A stretch of 35,497 bases of DNA from Minisyncoccota bacterium (GCA_035628215.1 DASPKG010000054.1:1-35497), one strand, 5' to 3'. Shown: positions 1,948-16,717, counted from the first letter of the stretch. The notes: a model not told the origin generated them from the sequence alone. Translations and numbers: made by a program.

Positions 1948-2616
1948 TCAGTGGAAGACGTGCCGGTCGAAGCCGTCCCACATTTTCGCGAGTGCGGCCG
2001 CTCCCAGCTCTGCGCCCTGCCGCAGCTTCTCGCCGTCCCCTTCTGCGTCGTAGCGGAGGAAGCCGGCTTCGGCTGCATGTACATGCTCCTCTTCTGCCCG
2101 GCTGTGATACTGGAAGTACTCGAGGGAATCCGGTGAAAAGCCGTTTCCCTTGAGTCCTTCGAAGAAGGCCGGATGGATCGATGCGGCGATCCGTTCGAGC
2201 GCGTAGTGGTAACCATAGGCGACGATGGGGTCGCCATCGCGCCAAACCTTGAGCGTGGTCTCGCCGAACTCGGCGACTTCCGGGATCATTTCGAGCGAGT
2301 CGATCTGATCGGCCGAAAGCCCGGCGCCCTCGATCATGAACTTGCGGAGGAGCCGGGCGTGCACCTTGTCTGGTTCGCCATTGCCGTACTCGTCGCGCAG
2401 GATCTCGATGAGCTCCCGACGGGTCTCATCGTCCTCGGTGATGGCGACGAGGAACGGAAAGGCTCGCTTGTGGTTGCGGGCCGCCAGATACCACTGGGCG
2501 GCGAAGCGTGCGATCTGCTCGGAAGTCTTTTCCCCCGAGAACCTGGAAAAGAACGGATGGTGCGAGGCCATTGCCGGACTCGCATCCAGTTCCCGCTCAA
2601 GCTGTTTGAGTGACAT
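1948..2616 (-). CDS. Heme-oxygenase-like diiron / 'iron-containing redox enzyme' family protein (CADD/PqqC/TenA fold)
   Basis: HHPFF...QWYL...LRDEYGNGEPDKVHARLL (E..G....H) and YFQYHSRAEEEHVH (H...E..H) ligand-type motifs. AGGAGG lies 5 nt upstream of ATG 2616. Confidence 0.75.
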   Translation of the reverse strand: MSLKQLERELDASPAMASHHPFFSRFSGEKTSEQIARFAAQWYLAARNHKRAFPFLVAITEDDETRRELIEILRDEYGNGEPDKVHARLLRKFMIEGAGLSADQIDSLEMIPEVAEFGETTLKVWRDGDPIVAYGYHYALERIAASIHPAFFEGLKGNGFSPDSLEYFQYHSRAEEEHVHAAEAGFLRYDAEGDGEKLRQGAELGAAALAKMWDGFDRHVFH

Positions 2617-5704: not shown

Positions 5705-7465
5705 CTAGGCACTATCGGTCACCGCGCGCAGCACCTCCTCGATGGAGGTCGTGCCCTTGGCGGCCTTGTAGAGGCCGTCCTCGAGCATGGTGAGCATGCC
5801 TTCCTTCCTCGCCTGCTCCTCGATCTGGTCCGAGGTCCCGCTATGGAGGATGAGGTCGCGGATCGCCGGCGAGACGGTGAGCACCTCGTGGATGCCGATG
5901 CGGCCCTTGTACCCTTCCTCGCACTCGGTGCTCGGCGTGGGCTTATAGAACGGGAGGGTATCGAGCTTCACGGTCGTCTTCACGAGCTTCTCGTCGTGGA
6001 GCGCCTTCAGCGCGGCCTCGAACTTGTCCTCATGCGCGACCTTCGCGCGCTCCTCGCTATCCAAGGTGTACTGCTCCTTTCCTTCGCAGAGCCTTCGGAC
6101 GAGCCGCTGGCCCACGACGACGCGAAGCGTCGACACCATGAGGAACGGCTCGACGCCCATATCGATGAGGCGCGGGATCGCGCCCGAGGCTGAGTTCGTA
6201 TGGATGGTCGAGAGCACGAGGTGGCCGGTCAAGGCCGCATTGATCGCAAGCGCCGCCGTCTCGCCGTCGCGGATCTCGCCCACCATGATGATGTTCGGGT
6301 CCTGGCGCAGGAGGGCGCGCAGCCCGTTGGCGAACGTGAACCCGATCGCGGGATTCACCTGCGTCTGATTCACGCGCTTCATCTGGTACTCGATCGGGTC
6401 CTCGACCGTGGAGATGTTCACGTCCGGCGTATTCAGAATATCGAGGATGGTATACAGGGTGGTCGTCTTGCCGGACCCGGTCGGCCCTGACACGAGGATG
6501 ATGCCGGTCGTCAGGCGGGTCGCGGTATGGATGCGCTCCAAGGTCTCGCCATGGAAGCCGAGCGCCTCAAGCGAGAAGCCCTCGGCGCCGCCCTCGCGAA
6601 GGAGGCGCATCACGACCTTCTCGCCGTAGTAGGTCGGCAGGAGCGATACGCGGAAGGACACCGCCTCCGACTCCGTCTGCATCTTGAAACGGCCGTCCTG
6701 CGGGAGCCGCTTCTCGTCGAGCTTCAAATTCGCCAAGACCTTGATGCGAGCGACCAGGCCCGCGGCCGCGTTCTTCGGGAGGGTCATGGCGTCATGCAGG
6801 ACGCCGTCGATGCGGTACCGGACGATGACCTCCGTCTCCGAGTGCTCGATGTGGATGTCGGAGGCGTCCTGGATGATGGCGTGGCGAAGCAGCGTGTCCA
6901 CGATGCGCACGATCGGCAGGTCCTCGGCCATCTTCTTGAGGTCCTCGCCCGAGACCTCCTCCCCGCCCGCCTCCTTGATGAGGTTGAGCTTCCCGGCCTC
7001 GGTGGAGATGAGGTCGCCGAACTCCTCCTTCAGCGACTTCTGGTATTGCACGAGGACCGACTTCAGAGATTCATCGTCCGTAAGGCGGGGGAGGATCTTC
7101 AACCCCGTCTTCTTCTTCACGGACTCGATCGAGGCGAGGTCTTCTGTATCGAGCATGGCGATCTCGAGGTCGTTGCCGCTCTTCCTGAACGCGACGATGG
7201 AGTGCGTGCGGGCGATGGGCTCGGGGATCAAGGAGAGCACGTCGAGCGGGATCTTGCGGTCCTTCAGGTTCACGAAGGGGATGCCGAGCACGTACGCCTT
7301 GATGCGGCGGAGCGCGTCAGCCGAGAGCGTCCCACGCGAGACGAGGATATCGCCGATGGATTGGCCGCGCTCCTCCGCTTCCTTCGCGGCATCCTCGACG
7401 TCCTTCCGGGCAACGAGTCCGGAATCGAGGATGAACTCTTTGAGTTCGCTTTCTGATACCTGCAT
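5705..7465 (-). CDS. pilB: Type IV pilus assembly ATPase PilB (GspE family)
   Basis: 586 aa with an N-terminal T2SSE_N-like domain, Walker A GPTGSGKTTT, and Asp/His boxes typical of GspE/PilB. Confidence 0.92.
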   Translation of the reverse strand: MQVSESELKEFILDSGLVARKDVEDAAKEAEERGQSIGDILVSRGTLSADALRRIKAYVLGIPFVNLKDRKIPLDVLSLIPEPIARTHSIVAFRKSGNDLEIAMLDTEDLASIESVKKKTGLKILPRLTDDESLKSVLVQYQKSLKEEFGDLISTEAGKLNLIKEAGGEEVSGEDLKKMAEDLPIVRIVDTLLRHAIIQDASDIHIEHSETEVIVRYRIDGVLHDAMTLPKNAAAGLVARIKVLANLKLDEKRLPQDGRFKMQTESEAVSFRVSLLPTYYGEKVVMRLLREGGAEGFSLEALGFHGETLERIHTATRLTTGIILVSGPTGSGKTTTLYTILDILNTPDVNISTVEDPIEYQMKRVNQTQVNPAIGFTFANGLRALLRQDPNIIMVGEIRDGETAALAINAALTGHLVLSTIHTNSASGAIPRLIDMGVEPFLMVSTLRVVVGQRLVRRLCEGKEQYTLDSEERAKVAHEDKFEAALKALHDEKLVKTTVKLDTLPFYKPTPSTECEEGYKGRIGIHEVLTVSPAIRDLILHSGTSDQIEEQARKEGMLTMLEDGLYKAAKGTTSIEEVLRAVTDSA

Positions 7466-7496: not shown

Positions 7497-8240
7497 TCAT
7501 AGATTGCGCCACATCACATTGAAAAGTTCGGTGTGCATCGTGATGATGCTCTTGTTTTCAATCGAGACGAGTATGCTTGGCTTCAGCATCTGCTGGATGA
7601 TCACCTTACGGGGCGTGACGACGAGGTTCGTATCTACCTTCGAGTCCGCGGGGAGCATTTTGATGGTCTCCTGGAAGTTTGTTTCGTGCTCCTTGTAGCG
7701 CCGTGCGGTTGACGAATCGACCAGCATCATCCGGATACGAAGCTTCTTCCGGTTGCGCTCGCGGATGAATTCCGTCGCGAAGCTCCCGTTCATGTCCTCC
7801 CACCGGTCCGGATCACCGACGACGAGGAACTCGTCATCGTGATTAAGCCCCTCGAGCATCTCGAAGTATGCGTTCCGGATCGCGCCTACGCCTTCGTAGT
7901 ACTTGATGAAGGATTCTCCCCGCTTGAGGTCGAACTGGGCCTCGAGCTCGGGCAGGAGATCGAGGAGCGCTCCGCGTCGCTGCTCGAGCATGCTCTCGAG
8001 CTTCTTCGGGTGCTCGGCCGCATAGAGCTGCTTGAACCCGCGGACGTCGGTCCGAACGAGACCCTTCTGCTTGAGGCTCTCAAGAACGTTATAAATCGTG
8101 GTTCGCTTCACCCCAGAGGCTCGAGAAATGCTTAGAACCGTTGCCGGGCCGAGCGAAAGCATGGCGATGTATACCGCCGCCTCGTTGGCGCCGAGGCCAA
8201 GACCCTCAAGAGACGCAGTAATTTCGGTACTTTTTGCCAT
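7497..8240 (-). CDS. TrmB-family transcriptional regulator
   Basis: N-terminus LGLGANEAAVYIAMLSLGPATVLSISRASGVKRTTIYNVLESLKQKGLV is a TrmB-type wHTH. A C-terminal domain of about 150 aa follows. Confidence 0.8.
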   Translation of the reverse strand: MAKSTEITASLEGLGLGANEAAVYIAMLSLGPATVLSISRASGVKRTTIYNVLESLKQKGLVRTDVRGFKQLYAAEHPKKLESMLEQRRGALLDLLPELEAQFDLKRGESFIKYYEGVGAIRNAYFEMLEGLNHDDEFLVVGDPDRWEDMNGSFATEFIRERNRKKLRIRMMLVDSSTARRYKEHETNFQETIKMLPADSKVDTNLVVTPRKVIIQQMLKPSILVSIENKSIITMHTELFNVMWRNL

Positions 8241-8253
8241 GGTGGAGCATATG

Positions 8254-8270
8254 TGTCGAGAAATTCGACA
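8254..8270. promoter_or_regulatory. Inverted repeat TGTCGA-gaaat-TCGACA, a candidate TrmB operator
   Basis: It lies 14 nt upstream of the TrmB ATG (8240), inside the divergent promoter region shared with the small ORF / YcaO unit. Confidence 0.45.
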
Positions 8271-8410
8271 ACATATTCACTTTACATCATATATTTAAAA
8301 GCAGCAAAAAATGCAAAAAGTCGACAAATATGACAGAAATGACCGCACTGACCTAGACTGACTGCGTCGGGATTCCCCTCCGATGACACATATTCCTTAA
8401 CCACGAAGCT

Positions 8411-8542
8411 ATGAAAACCAGCTATATCGCAATGGCCGGACAGGGTGTGTCTTCGCATGCCGTCATATCGGCAGCCCAGGGCAAGTCCTCGTCCCCCGTC
8501 ATGGCCGGACAGGGCGCTTCCTCGTTCATCGCCAAGCAATAG
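8411..8542 (+). CDS. Unannotated 43-aa Ser/Gly/Ala-rich ORF with an internal repeat (candidate YcaO substrate/precursor peptide)
   Basis: My own translation: MKTSYIAMAGQGVSSHAVISAAQGKSSSPVMAGQGASSFIAKQ*. ATGGCCGGACAGGG recurs at 8432 and 8501 (69-nt period). GC3 is about 70%, like real genes here. The stop lies 62 nt before the YcaO ATG. It is below the track's size cut-off. Confidence 0.45.
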   Translation: MKTSYIAMAGQGVSSHAVISAAQGKSSSPVMAGQGASSFIAKQ

Positions 8543-8568
8543 GCCTACGGAGGCCGAACGGACACTTC

Positions 8569-8589
8569 GGGTAGGTCATAGACCTGCCC
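8569..8589 (+). terminator. Intercistronic hairpin (possible attenuator) between the small ORF and ycaO
   Basis: GGGTAGGTC-ata-GACCTGCCC forms 9 bp including one G-U, followed by GAATCCGTATATTTT. A second 5-bp hairpin GGCCT-acgg-AGGCC (8542-8555) overlaps the stop codon. Confidence 0.4.
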
Positions 8590-8604
8590 GAATCCGTATA
8601 TTTT

Positions 8605-10068
8605 ATGCAGCAACCAACCATTACCTTCTTCCCGGGAAAGGGAATCTATAGCCTACCTGCAGGCGAAGAGATTGTATCCGTCCATGCGACGGAAGAGGCC
8701 CGCGCCATATTCGCAGGCGATGCCTCCGTGCGCGGAAAAGCGAAGCAGCTCCAGCGGTTCTACGAGCAGCAGAACATAGCGATCGAGCAGAAACCGGTAT
8801 TGTCCGAAACTCGCCGATTCGATTTCGGAACGGTTGAACATTTCGGCACGCGTAGCTCCGCGCACGTATGCGCCGTAGATTGGGGAGCGGTTGAGGATGC
8901 CCTCGCACAGATGGGATATCACCTCCGCCAGCGTACTCCCATCAGCGATGAGATCGGGAGGCTCGCCCCGGTATATCTGATCGAGGGACCAGAGGGAGTC
9001 CTTGCTGAAGGCAAGGGATTGGATCAGGAGCAGGCAAAGCGCTCCACGCTTGGTGAAGCCGTAGAGCGGCTCGCAGCACGTGGTCCAAGCGAACGAGTGA
9101 GGGCTCAACGAGGTACGGATACGTACCAGAATCTTTATCGCGGCAAAGATTGGGGTCTCGGCACACTCGCCGGACCACGAGATGCATTCGATTCTCAGAT
9201 ACCGAGCGAATGGCTACCGGCGCGGAACATCTCCCGCGACGAGACAGCGTTCCTGCCTGCGGAGCTCTCCTATTTTGAATACGTGCCGGAAACCACGCGC
9301 ACCCGTCTATTCTCGCTGCATCACACCATGGGCCTTGCGGCAGGCTCGTCCCGTGAAGACGCGGCCTTGAGCGGTATCTTCGAGGTCATCGAACGTGATG
9401 CGTACTGGATCACCATGCGTTGCCGCATGAATCTTCCGGATATTCCGCTCGAAGCGGTCCGGGACCTGGACCCGAAGGTCATTGCTATCGTGCAGGCGCT
9501 CGAGAAACGTGGATTCAAGCTCAGTGTGAAGGACCTGTCCCTCGATTGGGGTGTACCTGTGGTCCATGCGGTTCTGGTTGATACGCAGGGTGGTATCCCT
9601 GCGTTCGCGCACGGAACGGGCGCTTCATTCTCCTGGGCGACCGCGGTCGCCCGAGCCGTATGCGAATCAGTGCAGATGTACGAAGGGCTCTCTGCGGTCA
9701 TGAACGACGAATGGAAGTGGGAGGACGTGGTGAGCGTTGCAGGCGTGCTCGGGAATGCGGCGTACGCCTGGTCCGACCCGCTCTTCCGGCCTCATATCGA
9801 GCATCTCCTCGCTCCCTCCGATCAACCATGGGACGGAAGCGAACCTGCATGGTCTGTGCCAGAGTTCCTCGCTGACTTAAAGCAGCGTGGTCATGAGGTC
9901 ATTGTCGCTGATCTTGGTTCAGACTATGGTCTAGAGGTTGTGCGCGTATTCATCACGAATACGACGCAGCCAGATCCGCGACTTGAGCGAATCAGCCTGC
10001 GGCTTGAAGCGTGGCGAAACCGTCTTGGGCTTGAGCGAGGCCTGTATACCGACCCGATCCTGACCTAA
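8605..10068 (+). CDS. ycaO: YcaO-domain protein (ATP-dependent amide-backbone activating enzyme), stand-alone
   Basis: KGLDQEQAKRSTLGEAVERL (S-x3-E-x2-ER) and SGIFEVIERDAYW motifs are diagnostic of the YcaO ATP/Mg site. 487 aa with about 140 aa N-terminal to the first motif. Confidence 0.9.
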   Translation: MQQPTITFFPGKGIYSLPAGEEIVSVHATEEARAIFAGDASVRGKAKQLQRFYEQQNIAIEQKPVLSETRRFDFGTVEHFGTRSSAHVCAVDWGAVEDALAQMGYHLRQRTPISDEIGRLAPVYLIEGPEGVLAEGKGLDQEQAKRSTLGEAVERLAARGPSERVRAQRGTDTYQNLYRGKDWGLGTLAGPRDAFDSQIPSEWLPARNISRDETAFLPAELSYFEYVPETTRTRLFSLHHTMGLAAGSSREDAALSGIFEVIERDAYWITMRCRMNLPDIPLEAVRDLDPKVIAIVQALEKRGFKLSVKDLSLDWGVPVVHAVLVDTQGGIPAFAHGTGASFSWATAVARAVCESVQMYEGLSAVMNDEWKWEDVVSVAGVLGNAAYAWSDPLFRPHIEHLLAPSDQPWDGSEPAWSVPEFLADLKQRGHEVIVADLGSDYGLEVVRVFITNTTQPDPRLERISLRLEAWRNRLGLERGLYTDPILT

Positions 10069-10577
10069 TTATTCAGAAGACCCTTCAGGTGTTCGAAGAT
10101 GGGCCGCAGCTCCTCCTCGGAGAGCGTGAGCCGCGGATTCGACTTCCGCGTGGTGGGTGTGAGGTCCACGTACTCGCGGCCATTGAATGTGAGCGGTGCA
10201 TCGAGCCGAGGCGTGAAATGCATGTGCCCATGCCCGCGATGGTGCTTCGTTTCGTTCCCGAGCCATTCGACGTTGAGCGTACGGAGCGGGAGCCACGAGC
10301 GCATCGCGTCCGTGAACTCCGGAATGATCGTATACACGAGCTCATGGAGCTCCTCCTTCGTGAGCTCAGCGAGGCTCATCTGGTCCACATGGCGCTTGAG
10401 CCACGCGGTTGATCGGCCGGGCAGCTCCTGCTTCGTGATGTTGAGCCGCAGCGACCAATGTTCGTATTCCTTCAGGGTCCAGGGCGCGTACACCGGGCTC
10501 CGGAGGATGTCCTCGAGCTCCTCGGGGGTCGCGCGGCGGGAGAGATCGTGCTCCATATGCCCCATTCTAGCCTTCAT
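10065..10577 (-). CDS. HIT-like (histidine triad) family protein
   Basis: LNVEWLGNETKHHRGHGHMHFTPR carries an HxHxHxx triad at the position expected for HIT proteins. The stop overlaps the ycaO stop (convergent, 4-nt overlap). Confidence 0.55.
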   Translation of the reverse strand: MKARMGHMEHDLSRRATPEELEDILRSPVYAPWTLKEYEHWSLRLNITKQELPGRSTAWLKRHVDQMSLAELTKEELHELVYTIIPEFTDAMRSWLPLRTLNVEWLGNETKHHRGHGHMHFTPRLDAPLTFNGREYVDLTPTTRKSNPRLTLSEEELRPIFEHLKGLLNN

Positions 10578-15902: not shown

Positions 15903-16661
15903 TTACACTAGGTCCCAAAGATTGCGGAACACTTCGCGCTGGTCATGCGCAAGGAGCCTCGAATGGATCTCGACCATGTAATGCGGGTGTTGCCGGGTGT
16001 TGATCATAATGACGTAGTCGCCGCATATCCAGGTGCTCGAGATAAAATTCGTCGCTTCTCCCCAATATTTCATATCCCGTCGCTCATACTTCCCCATCAT
16101 GCGGCGCTCCGCCGAGGAAAGGTTCGTGAGGAGCTTCACATAGAGCTCAGGCGGCGCGATGCTCCACCAATAGTGGAGTTGATCCTCATAGGCCTCAACA
16201 AGAGTTGCGTCCTGGTACCCCCAGAAGCCGTACTCTTTGGTTTCAATCATGGATTCCATCCATATCGGGAAGACCTGCGGAAAGTAGGCTTCGAGTTTTG
16301 ATTCTTCAGTGAATTTGATGCGGGGCACCGGATAGGTCGTCTCCGCGTTAACCATGGAAACTTCCTCCGCGAGCTTCTTCAGGAGTTGCTGGCGCTCTTC
16401 AGAGCGCTTCCGTTCCGTCTCCACCGCAAGCGCGAGATCCTCGGTCGCCGCAGGACGAAATACGCGTGGGCGGCGGCTGGAGTCCTCTATCAGAAGTCCT
16501 TTCTCGATGAGGCTCCGGGCGATACTGTATGCGGTCGTGCGCTTAATGCCGGTCGCCTTCGCAAGGCGCGCCGGATCCAGCTCGCGGGCTCTCAACACTG
16601 CCTTGTAGACCTTGGCTTCCCGCGTATTGAGGCCAAGCGAAATGAGGAGCTGTTCGTCCAT
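15903..16661 (-). CDS. TrmB-family transcriptional regulator
   Basis: LGLNTREAKVYKAVLRARELDPARLAKATGIKRTTAYSIARSLIEKGLL is a TrmB-type wHTH, plus a C-terminal domain. Confidence 0.8.
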   Translation of the reverse strand: MDEQLLISLGLNTREAKVYKAVLRARELDPARLAKATGIKRTTAYSIARSLIEKGLLIEDSSRRPRVFRPAATEDLALAVETERKRSEERQQLLKKLAEEVSMVNAETTYPVPRIKFTEESKLEAYFPQVFPIWMESMIETKEYGFWGYQDATLVEAYEDQLHYWWSIAPPELYVKLLTNLSSAERRMMGKYERRDMKYWGEATNFISSTWICGDYVIMINTRQHPHYMVEIHSRLLAHDQREVFRNLWDLV

Positions 16662-16678: not shown

Positions 16679-16717
16679 TGTCGAATATTTGTCAACATTT
16701 GTTCGACATATGTTGAC
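16679..16717. promoter_or_regulatory. Interleaved inverted repeats (TGTCGAA...TTCGACA and TTGTCAACAT...ATGTTGAC), a candidate operator
   Basis: Read directly: TGTCGAA 16679-85 with TTCGACA 16702-08, and TTGTCAACAT 16689-98 with ATGTTGAC 16710-17. The site lies between the divergent TrmB-like gene and the beta-barrel gene. TTGAC/TTGACA -35-like hexamers follow. Confidence 0.4.

Follow-up and report, generated by a model that had tools for sequence, protein, structure and literature searches.

A candidate YcaO-peptide family with glutamine-centred repeats and a divergent TrmB-like regulator in candidate phyla radiation bacteria

In a stretch of DNA from a Minisyncoccota bacterium (GCA_035628215.1, DASPKG010000054.1; 35,497 nucleotides, hereafter the window), a gene for a TrmB-like regulator diverges from a 43-codon open reading frame (ORF) that is followed by a gene for a stand-alone YcaO enzyme. 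We consider it probable that these three genes form a self-contained module and represent a new YcaO-peptide family, in which ATP would be used to activate backbone amides beside an invariant Gln of a short repeat peptide. An earlier note on this DNA, made from the sequence alone, had proposed a minimal module of the type that produces peptides made by the ribosome and modified after translation (RiPPs), composed of the small ORF and the stand-alone YcaO with a divergent TrmB-like regulator. That arrangement proved to be conserved across syntenic loci.

YcaO enzymes are, to our knowledge, the only general way to activate peptide backbone amides with ATP. Each new class of YcaO substrates has revealed new chemistry, i.e., azolines, thioamides, amidines and ATP-dependent cleavage. 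YcaO-peptide modules as such are known; what is new here is a distinct YcaO clade, a precursor family, an N-terminal domain, a TrmB-type regulator and the lack of a conserved azoline-forming residue, and there is a real chance that the chemistry is new too. The literature on YcaO with TrmB, on YcaO in the candidate phyla radiation (CPR, or Patescibacteria), on surveys of stand-alone YcaOs and on the peptide motif yielded no description of the family. The small genomes of CPR bacteria are generally held to be poor in secondary metabolism, and a specialized peptide-modification module is a rarity in them. With one enzyme, one peptide of 37-64 residues and no partner genes, the module also offers a minimal test system, whose substrate is Cys-free, multi-site and nearly leaderless, with an invariant Gln and no conserved Ser or Thr.

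The 43-codon ORF is a conserved peptide gene

The ORF encodes the peptide MKTSYIAMAGQGVSSHAVISAAQGKSSSPVMAGQGASSFIAKQ, which is basic (isoelectric point 10) and contains no Cys, Asp or Glu. The GC content at third codon positions (GC3) of its gene is 0.72, in line with the gene-like GC3 and Cys-free product noticed before. The ORF had been taken to be unannotated, but an identical 43-aa protein is already recorded as 'hypothetical protein VEA36_02085' (P0121). An internal repeat had been described as a 69-nt duplication giving two units; the repeat is present, but it has three units, at 8432, 8468 and 8501, with a spacing of 36 and 33 nt (Table 1). Nine Ser residues form three clusters, each straight after a Q-G, and this Ser-richness is particular to the window peptide.

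Loci with related YcaO genes were fetched in three ways and are designated here by L numbers. A small ORF lies on the same strand beside the orthologous YcaO gene in 16 of the 16 inspected loci with upstream DNA, of which 14 were reached via YcaO and two via the peptide. All 14 YcaO-derived loci, at YcaO identities of 33-60% and in at least seven lineages, have a Q-motif ORF directly upstream. Conservation of the small ORF in syntenic loci, on which the earlier proposal hinged, was thus found throughout. A search with the single 43-aa peptide against 5.8 billion proteins matched only itself, and a profile built from nine peptides was needed to reach further peptide homologs. The reverse search with this profile retrieved further members (P0126-P0133); in the two loci looked up, L023 and L024, the peptide gene again has a TrmB gene (248 aa) on one side and a YcaO gene (500-510 aa) on the other. 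Another match, a 66-aa helix-turn-helix (HTH)-like protein with VMAGQAKSLF (P0134, L025 124-324), was discarded as a chance match (E=1.5, phage-like contig, no YcaO). A DNA methylase and many small ORFs surround it on that contig.

The family peptides share the unit consensus h-h-[A/S]-[A/G]-Q-[G/A/S/T]-[K]-x-x-[Y/F], present in 1-5 copies per ORF. Gln is its sole invariant residue (31/31 units) and is flanked by small residues; Lys occurs in 20 of the 31 units, and Y/F at +5 in 26. Positions +3 and +4 vary (S, V, A, T, Q or I), and no position within the unit is conserved as Ser, Thr or Cys. All CPR peptides lack Cys, and the L005 peptide, MNITATQGKQIFAAQGKAVFAGQGRQIFAAQGKQVYA, has neither Ser nor Cys and no Thr inside its repeat cores. 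Only 4-11 residues precede the first unit in CPR peptides, whereas non-CPR peptides have a leader of about 45 aa, followed by a C-terminal core with the motif once or twice.

Several properties indicate selection on an encoded protein. In the codons for A(-2), G/A(-1), Q(0) and G/A(+1), compared over 31 units, entropy is 0-0.9 bits at codon positions 1-2 and 1.86-1.98 bits at position 3 (0.96 for Gln, where the maximum is 1). This third-position variability with fixed positions 1-2 argues for selection at the protein level. Repeat copies inside one locus, e.g., L010, differ almost entirely by synonymous changes. In nine of the nine CPR loci tested, the forward frame is free of stops and the start codon is ATG, while the five other frames total 8-26 stops. 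Outside CPR, Shine-Dalgarno sequences precede the ORF, AAGGAGGTGA 7 nt ahead of the ATG in L011 and GGAGG in L012, and the peptide stop codon of L011 overlaps the YcaO start. The 43-codon ORF is therefore a genuine conserved gene, not a nucleic-acid motif. Antisense ORFs with Cys-containing 'PCPA'/'ALCGK' motifs, e.g., 8282-8539(-), were ruled out by stop counts and the codon-position pattern.

Peptide variants follow the YcaO clades. YcaO identity to the window enzyme is 49-60% in clade 1, 40-46% in clade 2 (including a Saccharibacteria metagenome-assembled genome) and 33-39% outside CPR. Clade 1 YcaOs occur with Q-G peptides, for example those of L015 (MKTNYSVMAAQGKTAYPSIMAAQGKSVFPVMTGQGAGVFAKA) and L005 or the L016 peptide with five units and an 8-residue period. 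Q-A-K peptides accompany the YcaOs of clade 2 (for example, MKQNYTTMAGQAKVSYS...YTVMAGQAKVVYS), of the gammaproteobacterium (C-terminus ...QCVVAGQAKSNYFFV) and of Longimicrobium (C-terminus ...GCIVAGQAKGHYCHL), and the Bryobacterales enzyme has a Q-T-K peptide (IVSGQTKPSY twice). The Acetobacteraceae peptide has LVAAQGKETS. The gene order is exactly TrmB-like (divergent), peptide, YcaO in the 11 CPR loci; in non-CPR loci, TrmB is replaced by other proteins while the peptide-YcaO pair is kept.

Table 1. Features of the module in the window
Feature	Position	Strand	Evidence or remarks
TrmB-like winged-helix regulator, 247 aa	7497..8240	-	PF01978, E=7e-18, 64.7 bits vs cut-off 25.6
Control region, 170 nt	between trmB and the 43-codon ORF		AT-rich, GC 0.41
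Operator-like palindrome TGTCGA-GAAAT-TCGACA	8254..8270		14 nt upstream of trmB start codon
Second conserved site GTCGACAAATATGACAG	8320..8359	+	overlaps sigma-70-like promoter; putative function
43-aa repeat-peptide gene, putative YcaO substrate	8411..8542	+	homologous small ORFs, coding signature
Peptide unit 1, AMAGQGVSSH	starts 8429		
Peptide unit 2, ISAAQGKSSS	starts 8465		
Peptide unit 3, VMAGQGASSF	starts 8498		
Intercistronic RNA structure	8542..8597	+	folding vs shuffles
YcaO, 487 aa	8605..10068	+	PF02624, E=6e-60, 203.6 bits vs cut-off 25.7
YcaO N-terminal extension, aa 1-135	8605..9009	+	AlphaFold2 model
YcaO ATP-dependent amide-activating domain and conserved C-terminal tail	9010..10068	+	PF02624 over aa 136-450

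The YcaO enzyme and its proposed chemistry

Among 5.8 billion protein clusters, close relatives of the YcaO number only about 19, and beyond them E-values leap from 1e-50 to 1e-14. Only generic YcaO models are passed, e.g., TIGR00702 with 98.2 bits (cut-off 75.65). The highest-scoring specific NCBIfam model, TIGR03604 (TOMM_cyclo_SagD), gives 125.5 bits and stays below its cut-off of 219.25. TIGR03266 (McrA-glycine thioamidation), whose criterion is a methanogen with McrA where the host here is Candidatus Paceibacterota, gives 105.1 bits (below cut-off 365), and NF040716 (S12/uL16-type) gives 56.7 bits (below cut-off 700) in an alignment that covers residues 238-358 only. With the latter score, the enzyme lies outside the S12/RimO housekeeping clade; membership of that clade would have spoken against the module. 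The S-x3-E-x2-ER (S147, E151, E154, R155) and EVIERD (E260/E263/R264/D265) ATP/Mg motifs were rightly described as intact: their residues are invariant or nearly so in 16 family members and align with those of MJ1094, LynD, TruD and E. coli YcaO. The AlphaFold2 (AF2) model of the full-length protein is confident, with a predicted local distance difference test score (pLDDT) of 88.7 and a predicted template modelling score of 0.91. Its top Foldseek matches are LynD (4v1v), MJ1094 (6peu) and MusD (7u58), at E values of about 1e-18 to 1e-21, with E. coli YcaO also among the structural matches. The best PDB sequence/profile match is MJ1094, a TfuA-independent thioamidating YcaO (5e-32).

The N-terminal extension is modelled as a beta3-alpha2 subdomain with an invariant FFPGKG, a linker and a second alpha/beta subdomain. 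Its pLDDT is mostly 80-96 in the full-length AF2 model and 77.8 when the domain is modelled alone. A Foldseek search of residues 1-137 against PDB gave nothing below E=0.16, and only three sequence matches were found among 1.84 billion representatives. Weak matches to double-stranded-RNA-binding domains appeared at ranks 46-47 of the full-length Foldseek search. A recognition role for these approximately 140 residues, suggested before, is plausible.

In the mechanism that we propose, the short, basic, Cys-free repeat peptide would be the substrate of YcaO, given its strict co-occurrence and co-variation with the YcaO clade. Strict linkage, motif co-variation, variable repeat number and the known amide activation by YcaO enzymes together make the peptide the most economical candidate. 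The repeat would be recognized by the family-specific N-terminal domain or by the YcaO domain itself, and in each repeat a backbone amide next to the invariant Gln would be O-phosphorylated by the YcaO domain at the expense of ATP. The activated amide is placed beside Gln because this is the only invariant residue; since no Cys, Ser or Thr is conserved, the outcome would not be a classical azoline. As in RiPP modules generally, a conserved, co-varying and co-directional small ORF is found beside a modifying enzyme.

Among possible products, TfuA-independent thioamidation is our tentative first candidate. An amidine-type ring, built with the Gln side-chain amide, with a Lys amine or with a freed N-terminus, is somewhat more doubtful, bond cleavage or some other outcome is unlikely, and an azoline on the occasional Ser or Thr is improbable. 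It is also conceivable, if doubtful, that the peptides form a new ribosomal class in which a stand-alone YcaO performs a chemistry undescribed in the superfamily and centred on the invariant Gln of A-G-Q-G/A repeats. In one such scheme, the ATP-activated backbone carbonyl would be attacked by the Gln side-chain amide or by a neighbouring backbone nitrogen, and the resulting ring would be a six-membered cyclic amidine or resemble an imidazolone. The reaction would take place at several sites in each leaderless multi-repeat substrate, which the new N-terminal domain would recognize. In CPR bacteria, with their reduced genomes, such a product might serve signalling or interaction with a host.

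Several observations weigh against a RiPP-type module. It has no protease, exporter or immunity gene, so how a mature product would be secreted is not evident. In bacteria, RiPP thioamidation as a rule requires TfuA, which the window lacks. CPR peptides have no leader, which is atypical of RiPPs; in CPR loci, neither the ORF nor ycaO is preceded by a canonical Shine-Dalgarno sequence; and the N-terminal domain has no detectable similarity to RiPP recognition elements (RREs) in the PDB fold search. The chemistry is not readable from sequence; azoline-type and thioamide-type profile scores are similar (125 vs 105 bits).

The absence of partner genes, as claimed by the earlier note, held when the full 35.5 kb was scanned: no TfuA, ThiF/E1 (PF00899) or nitroreductase-type/FMN dehydrogenase gene was found among all ORFs of the window. 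TfuA was also absent from the fetched flanks of related loci, and no E1/ThiF or nitroreductase-type domain was found among the called genes of CPR loci.

There is precedent for TfuA-independent thioamidation in MJ1094 (McrA thioglycine; PDB 6pe3/6peu) and in E. coli YcaO, which thioamidates uL16 at Met82-Gly83 without TfuA (PMC13063428). Like the window enzyme, both are stand-alone YcaOs that have neither an E1-like partner nor a TfuA in the vicinity, and their sites lie among small residues (Gly; Met-Gly), resembling A-G-Q-G/A. However, they modify large folded proteins encoded elsewhere, whereas the candidate substrate here is a small repeat peptide encoded next door. The window enzyme also falls far under the cut-offs of both families (105 of 365 and 56.7 of 700 bits) and carries an extra 135-aa N-terminal domain, and thioamidation would be one candidate outcome only.

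Cyanobactin heterocyclases (LynD, TruD and PatD) are the best structural matches, and cyanobactin precursors can hold several repeated cores. Unlike the module described here, these systems have E1-like and RRE fusions, Cys/Ser/Thr targets, long leaders and PatA/PatG proteases. Streptamidine provides a precedent for an amidine-forming stand-alone YcaO (PMC8442711). Bottromycin and streptamidine clusters share with our module a stand-alone YcaO and a precursor without the usual Cys/Ser/Thr-rich core, encoded by a small ORF of a kind largely missed by annotation and precursor-prediction tools. However, these clusters are actinobacterial, their leaders are long, and they contain further tailoring genes besides hydrolases by which an N-terminal amine is exposed; their peptides are unrelated in sequence to ours, and their YcaOs belong to a different clade, matches beyond our family falling to E values of about 1e-14. 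Gln-centred backbone cyclization exists in the tiarins and trifolitoxin, where a highly conserved core Gln (in trifolitoxin, within Arg-Gln-Gly) and the backbone form a heterocycle (bioRxiv 10.64898/2025.12.02.691738). The tiarin fluorophore is credited to the FMN-dependent dehydrogenases TfxB/TfxC, with YcaO as an accessory, thiazoline-forming enzyme (bioRxiv 10.64898/2025.12.02.691738). Our peptides have the conserved Gln, but the window has no TfxB/C-like gene; the resemblance is a lead, not membership.

Expression signals and alternative explanations

The 62-nt spacer between the peptide ORF and ycaO is highly structured. A hairpin before ycaO had been described with a 9-bp stem; the stem has 12 bp (8566-8577 / 8581-8592) and, with five further pairs, forms a 17-bp composite at 8558-8597, followed by UAUAUUUU and then the ycaO start codon. 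The small hairpin said to embed the peptide stop codon was located at 8542-8555. The minimum free energy of the spacer is -35.4 kcal/mol (z=-6.2), which none of 200 shuffles equalled. The two genes are separated by a stem-loop (12-17 bp) in the six clade 1 loci; those of L015, L001, L004, L005 and L016 are unrelated in sequence, occupy the same place and have z-scores of -3.9 to -5.9. That unrelated sequences all fold better than shuffles points to structural conservation. The clade 1 stem-loop probably makes peptide mRNA more abundant than enzyme mRNA, in agreement with the way in which RiPP systems commonly keep precursor mRNA in surplus. In clade 2, there is no stem-loop and the spacer is 5-24 nt, and non-CPR loci have short spacers or an overlap with the YcaO start. 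A simple terminator-rule scan did not call the 8558-8597 hairpin as an intrinsic terminator, and an Rfam scan of 8100-8750 detected no RNA family.

A strong stem-loop after the ORF and a stop codon inside a hairpin are also what a cis-acting leader peptide, working by attenuation or ribosome stalling, would display; the YcaO substrate would then be a cellular protein encoded elsewhere, much as uL16 is for E. coli YcaO or McrA in methanogens. Partner-less protein-modifying YcaOs do exist (PMC13063428; MJ1094), and the module has no protease or exporter. However, half of the family lacks the hairpin, with the short or overlapping spacers given above. Unlike in attenuator leaders, conservation of the motif across phyla is at the level of amino acids, and the variant of the peptide changes along with the clade of the YcaO. 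The rare and patchy family, with a GC3 under that of the neighbours, suggests an accessory rather than a housekeeping role, and the S12/uL16-type score is 56.7 against a cut-off of 700. We regard such a leader peptide as improbable.

The regulator carries the winged-helix domain (PF01978) of the TrmB family. Its best PDB sequence match is TrmB 3qph (9e-07), over the N-terminal 100 aa only; 5bpd also matches. It has no detectable sugar-binding domain, and no ligand is assigned to its C-terminal 150 residues. In every CPR locus, an ortholog (41-77% identity) is found at this place, likewise transcribed divergently. The TGTCGA-N5-TCGACA palindrome reported in the shared promoter is present as a perfect copy (Table 1), and TGTC-N9-11-GACA occurs at the equivalent position by the trmB start in L001, L004, L005, L008, L010, L015 and L016. 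By eye, the TGTC/GACA motif is also seen in L023 and L024, and it is kept in every CPR locus; the window contains three matches vs 1.17 expected, one of them upstream of a TrmB paralog. This second TrmB-family gene in the window (15903-16661(-), 252 aa, PF01978) has its own TGTC-N11-GACA palindrome at 16690-16708, 29 nt upstream of its start, and L001 likewise carries a nearby second TrmB gene (1071-1814). These sequences suggest that the TGTC/GACA half-site is a general operator of this CPR TrmB-like group.

On the peptide side, a promoter-like match at 8330-8359 (-35 ATGACA, -10 TAGACT) lies ahead of the peptide-YcaO transcript. The GTyGAC...TGAC columns of the second conserved site are invariant in a 6-locus alignment (A2), and L015 has the same TAGACT 7 nt ahead of the peptide ATG. 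All four TGAC motifs pointed out earlier are present (8331, 8340, 8349 and 8359), but across the six aligned loci conservation is limited to the first (ATATGACAG). In L023, there is an additional second TGAC 9 nt later (TGACAGATGTGACAG), and the remaining TGACs are window-specific. We infer an auto-regulated, TrmB-repressed divergent promoter, in which the TrmB-like repressor would bind TGTC-N9-GACA operators and control both itself and the divergent peptide-YcaO operon. TrmB and TrmBL2 similarly have an N-terminal winged helix (PF01978) and a palindromic operator-like site at their own promoter. Unlike them, the window regulator, with its putative DNA binding, is a dedicated ortholog that travels with a peptide-YcaO pair in bacteria.

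This strict three-gene linkage, together with the TrmB C-terminal region that has no assigned ligand, would also fit a peptide that is never modified and serves as a YcaO inhibitor or activator, a co- or anti-repressor of TrmB, or an immunity factor; the peptide is strongly basic, and most family YcaOs are mildly acidic. We give such a partner role little credence. Tandem short-motif repeats in 1-5 copies are typical of multi-site substrates, not of a folded partner, and non-CPR loci swap the regulator yet keep the peptide-YcaO pair.

In the reading favoured by the earlier note, which also allowed for amidines, the Ser residues would be cyclodehydrated to oxazolines in a minimal linear azoline peptide. 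The nine clustered Ser residues of the window peptide, the rank of TOMM_cyclo_SagD as top specific model (125.5 bits) and LynD as top Foldseek match accord with this idea. The Ser residues are not conserved, however: +3/+4 can be S, V, A, T, Q or I, the L005 peptide lacks both Ser and Cys (with Thr also missing from its repeat cores), and what is conserved is A-[A/G]-Q-[G/A]. The score for SagD falls well short of its cut-off of 219, and the window has no E1-like/Ocin-ThiF partner or FMN dehydrogenase. A C-terminal PxPxP motif is an important feature of azoline-forming cyclodehydratases; the family C-terminus, ...QPDPRLER...G(L/F)Y.DPILT, has PxP only. We therefore rate oxazoline formation as still less probable than the two preceding explanations.

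Last, a repeat that encodes no peptide but is a DNA or RNA motif (a protein-binding site or structured leader), open by chance, would suit a short ORF without Shine-Dalgarno sequences in CPR loci, but this reading is effectively refuted by the third-codon-position variation, the single open frame (9/9) and the ATG starts of the nine CPR ORFs, and further by the good Shine-Dalgarno sequences in non-CPR loci, the lack of an Rfam match, and the antisense frame sharing the wobble positions, which reads TGN by Gln and becomes a TGA stop when the preceding codon ends in T, as in many units.

Distribution, boundaries and neighbouring genes

The lineages with the peptide-YcaO pair are Paceibacteria, Nomurabacteria, Saccharibacteria, a gammaproteobacterium, Longimicrobium, Bryobacterales and Acetobacteraceae. 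Flanking genes vary by locus, while TrmB-peptide-YcaO is constant; L001 and L002 encode an identical YcaO protein and have different downstream genes. Flank variation and the differing downstream genes of L001 and L002 place the right end of the module at the YcaO stop codon. Downstream of 5446, one of these two metagenomes has MgsA and the other a large serine recombinase; in L005, a tyrosine integrase is directly downstream. Such neighbours point to mobility at the right-hand boundary. The GC content of the module had been called lower than that of the backbone, and it is, but only modestly (0.53-0.60 vs 0.63-0.68 in the flanks). GC3 is 0.62 for YcaO and 0.75 for TrmB, compared with 0.8-0.9 for the neighbours. 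The low GC3 and patchy phyletic spread suggest horizontal transfer; the module is probably horizontally mobile and self-contained.

In the window, PilC and PilB lie to the left of the module, and an unknown 170-aa ORF and NusA to the right. PilB is directly beside the module in the window (5705-7465(-)) and in two other loci, L004 (1066-2820(-)) and L015 (175-1926(-)), these being the three closest relatives; PilC adjoins PilB in the window and in L004, and the other CPR loci have no PilB beside the module. The 170-aa ORF (10065-10577(-)) converges on ycaO with a 4-nt overlap with the ycaO stop and encodes a His-rich HHRGHGHMH stretch; it has no above-threshold Pfam/NCBIfam match and no homolog in the other fetched loci. 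A gene for a haem-oxygenase-like iron redox enzyme (PF14518, also TENA/PQQC-like) at 1948-2616(-), some 6 kb from the module, is not kept beside it in other loci.

Outside CPR, an NCS1-type cytosine/purine/hydantoin permease (PF02133) is encoded next to the peptide-YcaO pair in L011 (3088-4347), L012 (3130-4392) and L013 (8042-9298). The three permeases have 45-57% mutual identity, and their position might be a hint that a small heterocyclic product is transported. An FRG-domain protein (PF08867) is encoded next to YcaO in L013 (9317-10147), L014 (7984-8787(-)) and L021 (5560-6441(-)) and matches the PADLOC candidate defence family PDC-S15 (E=1.6e-52). A PADLOC defence-system scan of YcaO itself gave no match, and the FRG/PDC-S15 gene beside these three non-CPR loci is probably mere island context.

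Large uncharacterized proteins flank the non-CPR YcaOs in L011 (6214-7800 and 306-3086), L012 (933-3119), L013 (6358-7980), L014 (6420-8006) and L021 (4063-5574). Apart from the L012 protein with its XRE-type HTH, none of them matches Pfam above the gathering cut-off, and the large L011 protein, the only copy searched against PDB sequences, had no match. The approximately 500-aa proteins downstream of non-CPR YcaOs align poorly (15-21% identity), and that of L013 has one sub-threshold SBP_bac_3 match. A stretch of some 100 residues is the only part that they have in common with each other and with the large upstream proteins (tblastn 1e-5 to 1e-16). In the non-CPR lineages, the large flanking proteins may substitute for TrmB or act as a partner of the enzyme.

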